Virus genome (UHGV): UHGV-2162644
Length of the DNA: 23,083 nucleotides
Source: a virus
Reading direction: 5' to 3' (one strand)
Of this stretch, positions 12,001 through 18,000 are shown piece by piece; position 1 is the first letter of the stretch; each line of letters starts with the position of its first letter. A program made the position numbers.

Positions 12001-15000
12001 GCCCAACTGGTAATCCCTTGTTGAATTTTTTGCTGCTGAATTTTCTGCTGATGTTGCGGTGAACCAGTTGCAGCGTAATACTCATCCACCGCCGCCTGAG
12101 CATTCCCGCCGTTCTTGATCGCTTCCGCCGCTACACTGCTGGCTCCTTCCTGAAGTTTCGCCAGAGAAAGTCCCTGCTGCTTCGGCGTGAAATAGCCGAA
12201 ATTTTTCGAAATTTCCGCGAATTTACTGCGATCCCTGACAAGCTCAACAGCCTTATCAACAGGCACCGCCAGCACGGTTTGATCATCAGGATGTGCACTG
12301 CCGTATTCTGTTACAGGTTTATGCGCGGTGGAGCCATCGCTGTATGTGAGATCAAGGCCAATAAGTACGTACCCTTCCTGCTGCGCCGGTACGATACTGC
12401 CAATCCTGGCCTCTTTTATCGTCTTTTTCCCGGTTGAATCGGGCATGCCAATACGCTGTTGCAGTTCCGGGCCAAACACCCCGGAAAGGACATCAAGATT
12501 CTCCGGCGTATTAAGTGAAGCGATAGCCCTGTCCGGCTTGTCATCAAAGATTTTTTGCAGGTTGTTCACGGCCTGACCCGCTTTCGCTACATAGCCATCA
12601 TTCGTCATCAGCCTCAGCGGATTACCCTCTGACAACTGGCCGTAAAGACGCATTGCTGCATCCCGATCGCCAGCATCCACAGCCTTTCCAAGCGCCGCCA
12701 TCACAGGCTGATCGCGCGCCAGCATATCGTTATACTCAAGCCATCGCTGGTTGTATTTCTGCATCCGGAGTCGCTGCTGCTCCATACCCAGCGACGCATT
12801 CCGGTAATTCTGGTTGGCGTTAAATTCACGTTCTTTAAGCGCATAATCACGGTCATCAACTTTGGCTTTGTAATCAAAGTCACGCTGATCAACGTTTTTA
12901 TTATGTTCAAACTGCGACTGCGCAAACTCAAAATCTCGCTCGTTATTTTTCTGTTGCTGAGCAAGCTGTGCTTCTCGCAAACCAAGCTCCTTACGACGGG
13001 TCATTGCCTGGTCAACCGTGCTGAATCCGGCAAGTAACCCCTGTGCAAATCCGCTCATTCACCACTCCTTAAAACAACGAGCCAGCAAGACCACCTATGA
13101 CAGCACCAATAGCCGCACCGGGGAGACCACCAACGGCAGCGCCCATAGCCGCCCCCGTACCAATGCCCGTACCGATATTCTGCTTGTTCTGCGCTTTCTG
13201 TTGCGCCGCCATCTGCTTGTTAGCAGCCTCAATTTCTTCACGTCGCCTGTCGGCGTCACTTATTCCCTGTAATGCCTCTCGACGTGACTGATTCGCAATA
13301 TCCAGTAAACCGTATCCCATATCGTTCCCCTTACCCTGACACCAGTTGTCCACCAACACTCAGTTGCTGTCTTGCAGGTGCAGAAGCACCAGTCAGTATG
13401 TTCATCTGGCGATCCTGCTCTGCTTCCCGTATACCATTTTTCGCGCCAGCAATTGCCAGTGCATTACGTAAACCCAGCGTGTTACTGTTGGGATTATCCG
13501 GACGGTTTACCCCGTATCTCGCCATCTGGTTATCCTGTGCCATCTGCGCTGTACGGAGACTGGAAGTGGCAAGGCCACCTACCCGGGCAAGCTGTGCATT
13601 CATCAGGCTGTTGTTCTCACCAAGGTCAGCCAGCCTTGCCACGCGGGGCAAATATCTGGTTCGCCAGTCGTCGTATTGCTGGCGTGTCAGCGCGGCGGAT
13701 GTCTGCCAGTCACCCTGTGGGCGGGCTGCGCCTGAATAACCAGCCCTTGCGAGAGTTTCGTATTTGCCATACTCCATAATTACAGTCTCCAGTTCTGAGC
13801 CTGATGCTGAATAGCATTAGCGCCGGTGCCTGGCGTTTTAGCGCCGCCACCACCTCCGTTACCGCCAGCCTTATGCATCGCGTACGCACCTACAGCTCCC
13901 AGACCAGCGCCAACAAGAGAAGCTCGCCCCTGTTGTTTCGTAAACGCCGCCTGTGCATCCGATTTGGCTTTTGCCAGACTGCTGTCAGCCAAGGAGTTAA
14001 AACTCTGTAACGCATCTGCCTTCTGACCGGAACCGAGAGCCGCAACATCCTGTAGCCCGGCAACATACTTATCTGCCTGCGATACCTGCCCCCGTGTGGT
14101 TGTGTCAATCTGCCCGGTTACCTGATCACTCTGGTTCGCATTCATTACCGCGTTAAAGCGACCACTGGACGGGTCAACACCGGACTGAGCAAGATTACCC
14201 GCCAGCTCCTTCCGTGCTTCGCCAAACTGTTTCTGATACCCCAGATTTGTGGTGCCAGCAATATTGTCGTACTGCTGCTCACTGTTCAGGTCATCGACCT
14301 TTTCCATGAAGTTATCTTCAGCCGGGCGGAGGATTTTTTGATAATCCTGCCACCCTTTCCAGGCCACTTCTTCCTGTGCTATTTGCGCTGCTGTTGGTTT
14401 TACTTTGGTATCACCACCGCCTTTTTTTCCGCCCATTATGGCCCCCTGGATAACAAAAAACCCTGCCGGGGCAGGGTCAGAATGTGAATTGCAATTGGTT
14501 TACACACGATAATGAATACAGTGGCAGTCAGACCGCTATCCTGAACACCATGAAGCCATCCTCATCATCCGGCATTCGCTCAAAGCCCAGACGTTTTCCC
14601 AGCCGGATAAATCCCCGCCTTGCCGTGTGGAATTCAGCCCAGCGTCCGCCAGCCAGACGGGTTAATGTCTTCACCTCCGGCAGATAACGCTCAACACCGG
14701 CACTCCCCGTACACACACCCAGCAACACCAGAACATAAGGGATACCGTCGTCACTGAGCACAGAACGCAGCACCAGAAAACCATCCGGTGCCTCAAAGCA
14801 AAATGCCTGCTTTTTAAGGCAGGCGTCTTTAACTTCATTCATAAATTCAGGGTTGCGGGAATTTCTCACAACACGCTGCATATACCGGAGAATTGTGTCG
14901 TCCATTCTCTCACCAGAAACGGGTGCCATATCGGCTGAACCTCAGCAACCAGTTGACGGGGACTTTCGTCCCCGTCGCGGTTTTCCTACTGCTTACACTG

Positions 15001-18000
15001 TAAGAACGCCGCAAACTCCGCTCCCCACAAATTCAGCCGGAACTCACACAACGAGCCGTGTAACATCCAGATGGTGAAGATCACCGTCATACAAATTGTG
15101 ACGGTGATGAGCGATTTTTGCGACATAGCGCTTGCCTCCTGAGTGGAGAGGCGCTAACCTTCTACTTGCTTAAGGTATGATGGTTAGGGCCTCGGGTTAA
15201 CATTAAAGTTGACTCGGGGCCTTTCCACATCAGGCCTTCAGGTTCACCTTCCAGCCATCAGCCGAAAGGCACCCGCGCATAATCTACGATTTTTGCCCTG
15301 CACGGGCAACAAAAAACCCGCTATCACAGCGGGTTATGACATGTTGTCGGGTATTACTCAGAATTTCAGGCCAATGCCTACAATAACCCCACTCGTGCGC
15401 CAGTCACCGGATCCGGAGCTTTCATACGCGACATCCATAGCAACACTTTCATTCAGGTTAAATTGTGCACCAGCAGCCCATGCAAGTGCTGTTTTTTTAG
15501 TACTCTTGCTTTCAGAAAAACTACCGGCACCATGATTAAGATTGTCGTTAATTTTCAAGTCAGTGGTGACTTTTGCACCCCCCATACCAGCCATTGCATA
15601 CACACTGAGGTATTCGTTAAACCGCCACGAAGGACCGGATAGTAGACTCCAGTAATTAGCCCTGATATCAGTTCTCGCTGAAGCTGCCGGATTTTTAACC
15701 TCTCTGGATTCATCTCCTGGGTTAATATCAATAAATGCCTGCGCATTAGTCATAGAACGCGCCCATGTAAAAGATGTTATAACACCAATCTCATCCGTTA
15801 TCTCATAACGATACCTGATGCTCATCCCCTGAGGAGATTTGCCTTTGCCATCATGCCCCCGGACAGAAGCATCTGCATATTCGCCTGAATTGAAGTAGTG
15901 TCTGTTTGTAAAACGGTTAAAAGTATCAAGATTATAAAGACTTAAATCCTTAACAAAATTGTTCAGTCCAGAGAGCTGAAGATGAGCGTATCCGAAAGAA
16001 ACTGTACTGTCACCTTGTGCTGCACAGGCAGGGGCTGCTACAAAACTCATCACAAAAGTTGTGCACGCAAAAATAATTCTGGTATGTTTCATTTTTAGAC
16101 TTTTCCTATAATAAAATAACCCCGTATTATCTAAGATGAATTTAGTTTTATTACTTAATATTCATACTGACAGGCATATCAGTCATACATTGATGAATTA
16201 ATGACCAACACTTTATCTATATACGGCTTCCGAATATCCCATGTTGCACGACCGGAATAATGCTCACAGGAATATATTTTATTTCCTGTAGCCCCCGTTG
16301 ATGTGGTGTAAATCGGTCGGTCATAAGGTGTACGCTGCCAGTTATAATACCCAACCAGTGCAGGCATAATTGCGCATGGATATCCAAGATCCTTCTCAAA
16401 CTTGATATCAACTGGTATTAACTTCGCGTCAAGCAGCATCATTTCGCCATGGTAAATCATCTCACCCGACGGGTTATACATGGCAATACCATACTCAGAA
16501 GGTTGAGTAACCATATTCGCAAAAGCATAAACAGTCGTAACACCAGGATTCGTTCCCCTGACAATTTGATGAAGCCTTAAGGCATGATATCCATCAATCT
16601 GTTCATGTGTGTACATGACATCGGCCTTTTTCTCTGTTCTGATAAAGAAAAAACAACTTTTTCCTGACGGGATTGATGTTTTAAAAAAAGCCTTCTCAGT
16701 CGCCGGAATAGTTCCCTTATTGATCAGACACTGAGGCGTAAACCCCGGGCTTATCCACAAGCTGCCATCTGGTTTCGTAATGCTTAAACCATACATACAA
16801 CTCACCCCCAGAATGTATAAATATATGACCCCATCCCCTGCTCAAGATTCGACCACGTCACCGTATTGCCATTAATGGTTATCTTCGGTACTTTCCGGTC
16901 CTTAAATACATTATTCCACGGAAATAATGAACAGACTGCCTGCAATGTTTTCCCTTCTGGTTTATTCGTATACGTTTTTGATCCCGACTCCGCCGTAAAC
17001 CTGTCCAGGAAAAATATGGGAGTAAGCACGCCCGTAACATTAACATTGTTTCTGTTGTATATTGCAAAACCATATTCTGCCAATGTCAGCCTCCGGCTCA
17101 GCTTAACCTGCCTATGCGAACAGCCAGGCGTCCGTTCTGGTCATAAACTTCAATTTTATCATTGCGGATCACCAGCCCAACATTCTGATTAGAGTAACGA
17201 ATTGTCAGTTGCCCCTGCGACGTAACACTAAAAAGGCCACCAATATTCAGGTTACCCTGAGAATCAACCTGAAAGTTCCCGTTCTGAATAACGGCACTCC
17301 GGATAACTGGCGAAGTGATACTTACCCCGGCTTTTACCTCATCCGCCACAACCTTCCGCGACACCAGTGTTTCAATCACCGCGTCATAAATCATCGCTTT
17401 GGGAATAACAACTTTTCCACCTGACACCACAAAGGGATAGGCTGTGTTATCCGGGTTGTTCGGGTCAAAGACAAACAACTGCGATGCCGAAATTGCAACC
17501 TGGCTTACCGGCTTCCCTTCACCATCTTTTCCTGCAACAATTCCGATCCCCGCAGTAATTCCCTCAACACCGGTCTTTTTTGACCACATGGCCAGGAAAG
17601 CTTCACCGCCTTCTTTATCCACCTTAGTGATGCGCTCATTTACCTTATTAAGCTCTTCACTGGTTGACTTATTCATCCCCGTAACACGGGTATCAATACC
17701 ACCGATAGTTTTCAGTGTTTCTTCCCTGAGATTACCCACAACTTCCGTCGTCTCGATTGCCGCGTCCTTTACTGCCTGCCCCTGAGCATTCTTTATTTCC
17801 TTACGCAGCTCTTCCACCACCGGTGACTTTGCAGCCTCCTCCTTGATCTGGTCAATAATGGCCTGAACGCTTATCTGGGTTTGTGCGGGAGTGCCTTTTA
17901 CCGCGTTCCATGGCCCTTTCACTCCCGCTGCATTAACAAAGCGTATCCAGTAGAATCCCGACCAGCCCGGATCAACCGGATCACCGTAAACCTGCCCCGG

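Follow-up and report, generated by a model that had tools for sequence, protein, structure and literature searches.

We report that the window, by which we mean the whole analysed stretch of 23,083 nucleotides from the UHGV virus genome UHGV-2162644, carries on its minus strand a Hok-family toxin gene together with the RNA elements that would control it. With a probability of roughly 0.8 we regard this locus, which lies in the late region of a 933W/Sp5-like prophage, as a toxin-antitoxin cassette of type I that belongs to the hok/sok systems. Judged from the sequence its RNA control is conventional, as every RNA element of hok/sok can be recognized except for an intact mok frame. The initial annotation of the locus had supposed that the regulatory RNA may be unconventional. 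This view has to be given up: the mRNA shows both tac/fbi and tac/ucb pairing, the Shine-Dalgarno (SD) sequence of the toxin is overlapped by an antisense promoter, and the antisense RNA was already detected in phage Phi24B under the name 24B_1.

The new aspect is the link between two literatures that make no reference to each other in this matter: the phage “microRNA” 24B_1, which was presented as the first functional phage microRNA-like molecule and has been studied for a decade, sits in the antitoxin position of a hok/sok cassette. The toxin gene itself is already known, being named by the Prokaryotic Genome Annotation Pipeline (PGAP) and by PHROGs, and represents one more Hok-family cassette; the 12-14 Hok/Gef genes that were counted in genomes of E. 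coli O157 probably include it. Should the toxin be active, Shiga toxin (Stx) phages would possess two Hok/Sok modules, which bears on the timing of lysis, the release of Shiga toxin and the stability of the prophage.

The toxin gene and the folding of its mRNA

The toxin gene (14986..15126, minus strand, ATG start) encodes the 46-residue peptide MSQKSLITVTICMTVIFTIWMLHGSLCEFRLNLWGAEFAAFLQCKQ. It is located between an Ail/Lom gene at 15358..16092 (Pfam Ail_Lom, E = 2e-33) on one side and an open reading frame (ORF) of 133 residues at 14528..14929 on the other. A Hok-like ORF at 15126..14986 had been proposed by the initial annotation, and the Pfam search bears this out: residues 8-44 match HOK_GEF (PF01848) with 33.2 bits (gathering score 22, E = 4e-8). 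In PHROGs the peptide is assigned to phrog_251, “MokW-like host killing” (E = 2.8e-24). It consists of a hydrophobic N-terminal helix, LITVTICMTVIFTIWML, followed by GSLCEFR, and in an alignment of 23 family members including HokW of 933W the residues C27 and E28 of the LCE motif are invariant and a second cysteine near the C-terminus is nearly so. Homologues were found in 56 clusters out of 5.8 billion proteins searched. Nearly all of them have 46 residues, are named Hok/Gef by their source and stem from E. coli, Shigella and Salmonella, with a lowest identity of 59%.

The assignment to a curated Hok subfamily, or to HokA in particular, was ruled out, as the best NCBIfam match (HokA NF007290, E = 9e-10) reaches 38.4 bits at a curated cut-off of 89, and the Hok family NF007279 reaches 22.7 bits at a cut-off of 73. 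With scores this far under the curated cut-offs, the similarity to the chromosomal hokA-hokE of E. coli is at the level of the family only. By sequence the 46-residue proteins form a subfamily of their own, occurring in E. coli, Shigella, E. albertii, Citrobacter and Salmonella. Between the window and phage Phi24B the coding sequence differs by seven synonymous and no non-synonymous changes. Within the group of Stx phages up to eight synonymous and again no non-synonymous differences occur, and the pooled ratio of non-synonymous to synonymous polymorphism (pN/pS) over 32 distinct coding sequences is 0.29. The frame is clearly under purifying selection as judged from these sequences, and we assign the ORF as a genuine gene of a Hok-family membrane toxin.

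The elements of the toxin mRNA, all on the minus strand, follow each other in the order expected for hok. The terminator scan places the intrinsic terminator of lom (AACCCGCUGUGAUAGCGGGUU and a U-run, 15315..15335) directly upstream of a predicted hok-type promoter at 15281..15309, with a −35 box TTGCCC (15309..15304), a spacer of 17 nucleotides and a −10 box TAGATT (15286..15281). The predicted start of the mRNA, read from the sequence, is G15274. In 10 of 11 aligned cassettes a −10 box TAGAAT, TAGATT or TAAATT lies 6-7 nucleotides before GGGTGCC. The mRNA begins with a tac-like 5' element (15258..15274), made up of the core GGGUGCC (15274..15268) and the extension CGGCUGAU; an alternative partner of this element is the ucb-like box GGAAAGGCCCC at 15216..15228. 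The hairpin sequestering the SD sequence follows at 15126..15156, with the SD AGGAGG at 15140..15135 and the anti-SD UCUCC at 15149..15145. Beyond the stop codon there is a 9-base-pair (bp) hairpin with a GAAA cap, GACGGGGAC-GAAA-GUCCCCGUC (14953..14974; −19.7 kcal/mol, z = −6.5), and approximately 60 nucleotides past the stop codon an fbi-like 3' element (14921..14938) with the core GGCACCC (14927..14921) and UCAGCCG.

The RNA of 360 nucleotides from 15274 to 14915 folds with a minimum free energy of −163 kcal/mol (z = −7.1). In both the minimum free energy and the centroid structure of the full-length RNA, nucleotides 1-7 (GGGUGCC) pair with 14927..14921 (GGCACCC) and nucleotides 10-17 pair with 14938..14931. 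If the RNA is shortened to the 3' hairpin, the 5' end pairs with GGAAAGGCCCC (15228..15216) instead. Such tac/fbi and tac/ucb pairings are the defining features of hok mRNAs according to the summary of the R1 hok/sok system (PMC9841398). The initial annotation had noticed the SD inside a hairpin with an upstream anti-SD and AGCGC/GCGCT flanks, and folding of the leader agrees with it: the hairpin is a bipartite structure of 10 bp, with an outer stem AGCGC/GCGCU and an inner stem UCUCC/GGAGG, its folding energy is −15 kcal/mol (z = −3.4), an equally good fold was found in none of 200 shuffles, and it is conserved. The Rfam model RF01794 matches over its full length (model positions 1-157) at 15274..15115 on the strand of the ORF, with 40.7 bits and E = 2.2e-7. 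Although titled “sok”, this model actually spans the hok leader from the 5' end of the mRNA to the hok AUG. Weak Rfam matches to Trp_leader and Hrs1 were rejected as the lom terminator hairpin, and those to mir-675 (E = 0.98), tsr25 and isrK as chance or the lom terminator.

We examined the conservation of these pairings in 63 distinct cassettes (alignment A3), taken from contigs with divergent family members, from one genome per species and from IMG/VR. Controls were obtained by sliding the pairing partners by 1-3 columns and by 500 shuffles. The full-length structure is paired in 90.2% of the cells compared to 37-42% in the slid controls; 36 pairs changed on both sides (controls 14-27), and 252 cells contain changes on both sides (controls 28-62). 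None of the shuffles reached the observed values. For the truncated structure 31 pairs changed on both sides, again a value that none of 500 shuffles attained, and the slid controls for both structures range over 7-27 pairs and 37-44% of cells. Since the structures were derived from the window sequence, the measure of paired cells is favoured, and the compensatory counts are free of that bias.

Looking at single helices, the tac/fbi core is paired in 97% and its extension in 87%, with compensatory changes in six out of eight pairs of the extension, for example from CGGCUGA/UCAGCCG in Stx phages to CGAC/GUCG in Salmonella. The tac/ucb helix is paired in 96.6%, and three of its pairs changed on both sides. 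Alignment columns 35-36 in the 5' element covary with their partners in the ucb box as well as in the 3' box, which is the coupled covariation to be expected for mutually exclusive pairings. The GNRA-capped hairpin that the initial annotation had placed at the 3' end is present and paired in 99.8% over all cassettes, five of its nine pairs being compensatory. The outer stem of the SD hairpin is paired in 99.7%, and here only G-U changes occur. GGGTGCC is found in 57 and GGCACCC in 61 of the 63 cassettes, and the promoter hexamers, the SD, the start codon and both long-range pairings are kept across E. coli, Salmonella, prophage and plasmid contexts.

Two observations concern the 3' end of the cassette. 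The fbi-like box (GAUAUGGCACCC) overlaps the annotated ATG (14929) of the 133-residue gene. As phrog_610 aligns to residues 9-133 only, the real start of this gene may be the ATG at 14905 behind GGUGAGAG; if the start at 14929 is used, the closure of the toxin mRNA between its 5' and 3' ends would mask it. Read in the other direction (plus strand, 14954-14977), the 3' hairpin precedes CGGTTTTCCT, and the terminator scan classifies it as terminator-like. This could stop antisense transcription from downstream before it reaches the toxin gene.

The antisense RNA and its identity with 24B_1

The initial annotation saw no obvious Sok promoter. A promoter in the Sok position can nevertheless be recognized on the plus strand at 15132..15160, where a −35 box TTGCCT (15132-15137) is separated by 17 nucleotides from a −10 box TAACCT (15155-15160). 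It overlaps the SD hairpin of hok on the opposite strand. The −10 box TAACCT is found in 60 of the 63 cassettes, and 53 possess a −35 box (TTGCTC, TTGCCT, TTGTCT or TTTACT) at a spacing of 17 nucleotides; the other 10, including Phi24B with TTGACT, have one extra base within the promoter stretch. The predicted ends of the antisense RNA are 15169..15249 (plus strand), so that it is complementary to nucleotides 26-106 of the toxin mRNA leader and equivalent to the 81-nucleotide precursor of 24B_1; its 3' end may also lie near 15225, after the hairpin and UUU. The antisense hairpin has a folding energy of −40.6 kcal/mol (z = −6.2). In 62 out of 62 cassettes the antisense strand folds more stably than the sense strand, with means of −36.0 and −24.4 kcal/mol. 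This asymmetry arises from G-U pairs of the antisense RNA, whose counterparts in the sense RNA are C-A mismatches, and it assigns the hairpin to the antisense strand.

The spacer between lom and vb_24B_43 of Phi24B is 96% identical to the minus strand of the window (alignment A1). From this spacer Nejman-Falenczyk et al. 2015 (PMC4426718) reported 2223 reads of TAACGTTAAGTTGACTCGGG, a single species of 20 nucleotides at HM208303 45711-45692 on the antisense strand. The authors predicted a promoter p24B_1 with the boxes TTGACT and CGCTAACCT, and proposed an 80-nucleotide hairpin precursor. The sequence of the 81-nucleotide precursor is given in the S2 Table of a paper from 2023 (PMC10732415). 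By alignment A1 promoter, precursor and 20-mer map to the plus strand of the window at 15132-15160, 15169-15249 and 15198-15218. The equivalent of the 20-nucleotide RNA (15198..15218) has one substitution and one extra base compared to TAACGTTAAGTTGACTCGGG, and covers the loop and the 3' arm of the antisense hairpin. On the evidence of these sequences, the antisense RNA of the hok/sok cassette and the published 24B_1 precursor are one and the same RNA. The DNA, too, is that of the 24B_1 locus, with the difference that here the RNA occupies the Sok position of a hok/sok cassette.

In both papers (PMC4426718, PMC10732415) the RNA is regarded as a regulator of the microRNA type that acts in trans, and the words hok or sok occur in neither. 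A review by the 24B_1 group discusses Hok/Sok and 24B_1 in separate sections. We found no paper that links 24B_1 to hok/sok, or hok to lom in 933W, in the library searched, which is incomplete, so that such a link may exist elsewhere. A ribosome-profiling paper on EDL933 contains nothing specific to the locus in the lom-L0129 spacer.

The identity has consequences for the mutants from which the function of 24B_1 was deduced. The recombineering arms of Delta24B_1 delete HM208303 45585-45772 (189 nucleotides). On the toxin side the phage thereby loses the promoter, the complete leader, the anti-SD and most of the SD, and in addition the 3' half of the lom terminator and the antisense gene together with its −10 box; the toxin ORF remains, located behind a scar of the Flp recognition target (FRT). 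The complementing or “overproducing” plasmid pUC18_24B_1 spans 45473-46037, which is the whole cassette including the toxin ORF. As the deletion and the plasmid alter the small RNA (sRNA) and the toxin system together, the phenotypes do not separate a role of 24B_1 from an effect of the toxin-antitoxin system. The “overproducing” plasmid lowers cellular ATP according to the 24B_1 literature; a membrane-damaging Hok toxin could produce such a drop as well. Equally, these phenotypes do not disprove a trans-acting role of the 20-mer.

Proposed mechanism and alternative explanations

The cassette shares with hok/sok of plasmid R1 (PMC9841398) a membrane peptide of about 50 residues with an LCE motif, a leader of about 150 nucleotides, a stable hairpin upstream of the 3' box, the closure of the mRNA by tac/fbi, the alternative tac/ucb pairing with coupled covariation, and a cis-antisense RNA from a promoter next to the hok SD that is complementary to the leader and not to the ORF. 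It differs from R1 by the length of the peptide (46 residues) with its distinct C-terminus AAFLQCKQ, by the lack of an intact mok frame reaching the hok SD, by its location in a late prophage region with no terminator past the 3' box, and by an RF01794 score (40.7) under the gathering score of 59. Its antisense hairpin exceeds that of R1 in length, with an apical stem of 16 bp and a published precursor of 81 nucleotides, compared to 64 nucleotides for Sok of R1.

A second point of reference is hokW-mokW-sokW of 933W and Sakai prophage 5, Sp5 (PMC8621323). Takada et al. 2021 reported that hokW-sokW of Sp5 is a toxin-antitoxin pair which speeds up lysis and doubles the release of phage, and that the sokW antitoxin depends on Hfq and RNase III (PMC8621323). 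As in the present cassette, a Hok-family toxin is combined with an antisense RNA complementary to its leader. Both loci are present in 933W and in VT2-Sakai (L062). In 933W hokW-sokW lies at 58460-58734 (hokW at 58460-58615) near attR, whereas the cassette described here corresponds to 45428-45856, approximately 13 kb apart. HokW has 51 residues (MKQQKAM...YESEK), a different leader and 37% identity over 35 residues to the 46-residue peptide, and its gene has an annotated overlapping mokW in contrast to the present locus, which has no overlapping mok. Identity with the published hokW-sokW is ruled out by the different sequence and the different position in 933W.

From the R1 and hokW-sokW paradigms we infer the following mechanism, as far as the inertness of the mRNA, its trimming and refolding and the action of the antisense RNA are concerned. 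Transcription of the minus strand from G15274 would give an mRNA of about 350 nucleotides encoding the 46-residue Hok peptide. In its closed full-length form this mRNA should be stable and translationally inert. Slow trimming of the 3' end back to the GAAA hairpin, the likely stop for the exonuclease by analogy with the R1 hok model, would then lead to refolding. In the refolded RNA the upstream strand GAGGCCCUAACC may capture GGUUAGCGCCUC, thereby weakening the SD hairpin and permitting Hok synthesis. The short-lived antisense RNA would bind the leader with the aid of Hfq, restore the masking of the SD and direct cleavage by RNase III; its binding to GAGGCCCUAACC would give the captured strand back to the SD hairpin. 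Binding of Hfq to the 24B_1 precursor is described in the 24B_1 literature (dissociation constant 25 nM), and RNase III cleavage of the duplex of toxin mRNA and antisense RNA has been shown for R1 and for hokW-sokW. If the antisense RNA is lost or titrated, e.g. by a flood of late sense transcripts after induction, Hok would be made and the inner membrane depolarised. The 20-nucleotide 24B_1 would be most simply explained by cleavage, either of the antisense RNA itself or of its duplex with the sense RNA.

In the window the leader contains a mok-like remnant of 22 codons, MWKGPESTLMLTRGPNHHTLSK (15162..15230, minus strand), which ends 35 nucleotides short of the hok ATG; an out-of-frame ORF leading from the leader across the hok start was looked for in the window and not found, as the initial annotation had already stated for this copy. 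The leader AUG (15230) is kept in 54 of the 63 cassettes, with frame lengths from 1 to 79 codons. In six cassettes the frame (61 or 79 codons) crosses the SD and the start of the toxin and forms an intact mok-like ORF; these are L042, L045, L049, L065, L025 and related rows of alignment A3, from phages otherwise nearly identical to the window. In near-identical Stx phages the frame has 8, 10, 15, 22 or 61 codons. With lengths this variable a conserved leader peptide cannot be claimed, and as the AUG lies inside the ucb box the RNA structure may be what keeps it. In the truncated RNA GAGGCCCUAACC pairs with GGUUAGCGCCUC, a helix paired in 86% across the cassettes, and by this pairing the SD hairpin loses its outer stem, so that only 3 bp of it are left. 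A mok-independent switch is a hypothesis drawn from this loss of the outer stem, and forms the weakest part of the model.

Several points weigh against an active cassette controlled in this way. In R1 the synthesis of Hok requires translation of mok up to the hok SD; as the mok frame is broken here and in most relatives, Hok may be poorly translated or controlled otherwise. Partition function calculations gave an unpaired probability of the SD of approximately 0.2 in the full-length, the truncated and the truncated plus antisense state alike, and by this measure of accessibility a thermodynamic switch receives no clear support. The RF01794 match stays below the gathering score, and in the Stx-phage context the 3' box leads directly into the next gene with no terminator past it; a clear terminator follows the box in other contexts. 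The reverse-transcription PCR that detected the “80-nt transcript” used cDNA from random hexamers and does not distinguish the strands. Reads of 24B_1 were seen only 80 minutes after induction (PMC4426718). The locus is part of the late operon, and Q-antiterminated transcription should therefore supply large amounts of sense RNA for pairing with the antisense RNA; we infer that the 20-nucleotide fragment would then appear only at this time. Finally, we found no experiment in the literature on the 46-residue peptide, neither on its toxicity nor on its neutralisation by the antisense RNA.

Regarding the role of the cassette, a fall of the antisense RNA after induction may, by analogy with hokW-sokW, set the toxin free, which may then advance lysis. 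The maintenance of the prophage or the exclusion of other phages are equally possible roles for a hok/sok system. The initial annotation had suggested an addiction or abortive-infection element; hokW-sokW, the only experimental precedent in these phages, points to an aid for lysis and phage release. More tentatively, and with somewhat less than an even chance, we propose that 24B_1 is a processing fragment of a Sok-type antitoxin RNA, probably made by RNase III when late sense transcripts have paired with it, that the published effects on lysogeny, survival and ATP arise largely from perturbing or dosing the Hok cassette rather than from a microRNA-like regulation in trans, and that the module is redundant with hokW-sokW. 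If true, this redundancy could explain why deletion of hokW-sokW alone just halves the release of phage.

The published explanation takes the plus-strand transcript for the precursor of 24B_1, a microRNA-like RNA of 20 nucleotides that favours lysogeny by acting in trans on d_ant, the region upstream of S and the host gene sdhB; the Hok ORF would then be incidental. The single species in the 2223 reads is in agreement with this explanation, as are the opposite phenotypes of deletion and plasmid in lysogenisation, survival and phage gene expression, and the weak in vitro binding of the 20-mer to a fragment of the sdhB 5' untranslated region. Yet this binding stays below 10% at 100 nM, the deletion also takes the toxin promoter, the leader and most of the SD, and the plasmid carries the complete cassette. 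Furthermore the Hok mRNA leader, which is conserved and structured, is matched with perfect complementarity by the antisense RNA, and the promoter and hairpin of the latter are conserved on plasmids and in unrelated prophages that lack d_ant and S of the Stx phages. We therefore consider it unlikely that the published explanation is right in this form. A microRNA-like function and a hok/sok cassette are however not mutually exclusive.

A slightly less probable explanation still is decay: the cassette would be a remnant of hok that is translationally silent, as is the case for several hok loci on the E. coli K-12 chromosome, and its RNA elements would persist by inertia or for a new antisense role. 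This would fit the mok frame being cut at variable positions among near-identical Stx phages, the lack of a terminator past the 3' box in these phages and the loss of the 5' element in L017 and L044. A decaying gene is difficult to reconcile with the complete lack of non-synonymous against up to eight synonymous differences in the Stx-phage group and the pooled pN/pS of 0.29, with hexamers, SD, start codon and long-range pairings that are kept across contexts with compensatory changes, and with its occurrence in 442 of the 5426 complete genomes of E. coli and that of relatives on 271 IMG/VR contigs. One could finally think of a chance open frame accompanied by terminator-like hairpins between two phage genes, as there are only 46 codons and the 428-nucleotide spacer was left empty in the original annotations of 933W and Phi24B. 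The Pfam, PHROG and NCBIfam similarities, including the match to phrog_251, the selection on the codons and the conservation of the cassette in unrelated contexts rule out a chance ORF for all practical purposes. The hok/sok cassette is for these reasons the explanation we prefer.

Occurrence and genomic setting

The prophage is of the 933W/Sp5-like type (Sepvirinae), and the cassette lies between lom and a homologue of L0129 in the late region. The stretch 14880-15350 (471 bp) recurs with 100% identity in a prophage of E. coli UCPROB-002, and has 97.7% identity to Stx2a-converting phages and to Oslovirus Lyz12581Vzw. With at least 80% coverage it was found in 442 of 5426 complete E. coli genomes and in 187 phage records, and relatives of the 46-residue toxin are encoded on 271 IMG/VR contigs. 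The initial annotation called the gene unannotated. This is right for the GenBank records of 933W (AF125520) and Phi24B (HM208303), in which the spacer of 428-429 nucleotides between lom and L0129 or vb_24B_43 was originally left empty. It is wrong for RefSeq/PGAP, which labels exactly the toxin ORF in UCPROB-002 as WP_000078907.1, “Hok/Gef family protein”, and for PHROGs with its phrog_251. Oslovirus Lyz12581Vzw annotates the ORF as “MokW-like host killing”.

Outside this prophage type, cassettes occur at the ends of P2/HP1-like prophages beside serS, in a Salmonella prophage beside cation-efflux and phosphofructokinase genes, as tandem duplicates in Salmonella, and on plasmids beside a relaxase gene. 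Common to these unrelated contexts is the cassette of approximately 360 nucleotides. Second copies, in tandem or close by, are found at the ends of Salmonella prophages (L009, 2501-2641 and 2991-3131; L010, 2501-2641 and 2995-3135) and on one IMG/VR contig (L075, about 1029-1169 and 1501-1638). The diverged peptides (e.g. MPQKTIIVSILCLTMLLAIWMIHRSPCEFRLNIMWSEFAAFLQCKQ) and the diverged apical sequences of the antisense hairpins in such duplicates suggest separate toxin-antitoxin specificities.

In two sequences (L017, 2349-2713; L044, 1349-1713) the 5' element and the upstream leader are replaced by unrelated sequence, and the antisense promoter, the SD hairpin, the ORF and the 3' box are retained; judged from these sequences recombination breakpoints appear to lie inside the leader. 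Cassettes with 76-100% identity were also found in assemblies of non-enterobacterial origin, namely L021 (Xanthomonas pisi, 857 nucleotides), L022 (a metagenome-assembled genome of Planococcaceae) and L024 (Vagococcus sp.), two of them on short contigs of 857 and 4211 nucleotides. These copies are most likely contaminating or mis-binned enterobacterial DNA.

Two further features of the window were noticed. Downstream in the same late operon there is an ORF of 2406 residues (4515-11735, minus strand) which may be the 8.4-kb gene L0134 of 933W. As it is about 400 codons shorter than L0134 as listed and begins with TTG, its true start may be further upstream. On the plus strand two matches to the Rfam family sRNA-Xcc1 above the gathering score (407-495 and 944-1029; 69 and 73 bits) both fall in genes of the antA/AntB antirepressor family according to RefSeq annotations of identical E. 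coli prophages, and very high read counts for an sRNA-Xcc1 locus are reported in the EDL933 paper.

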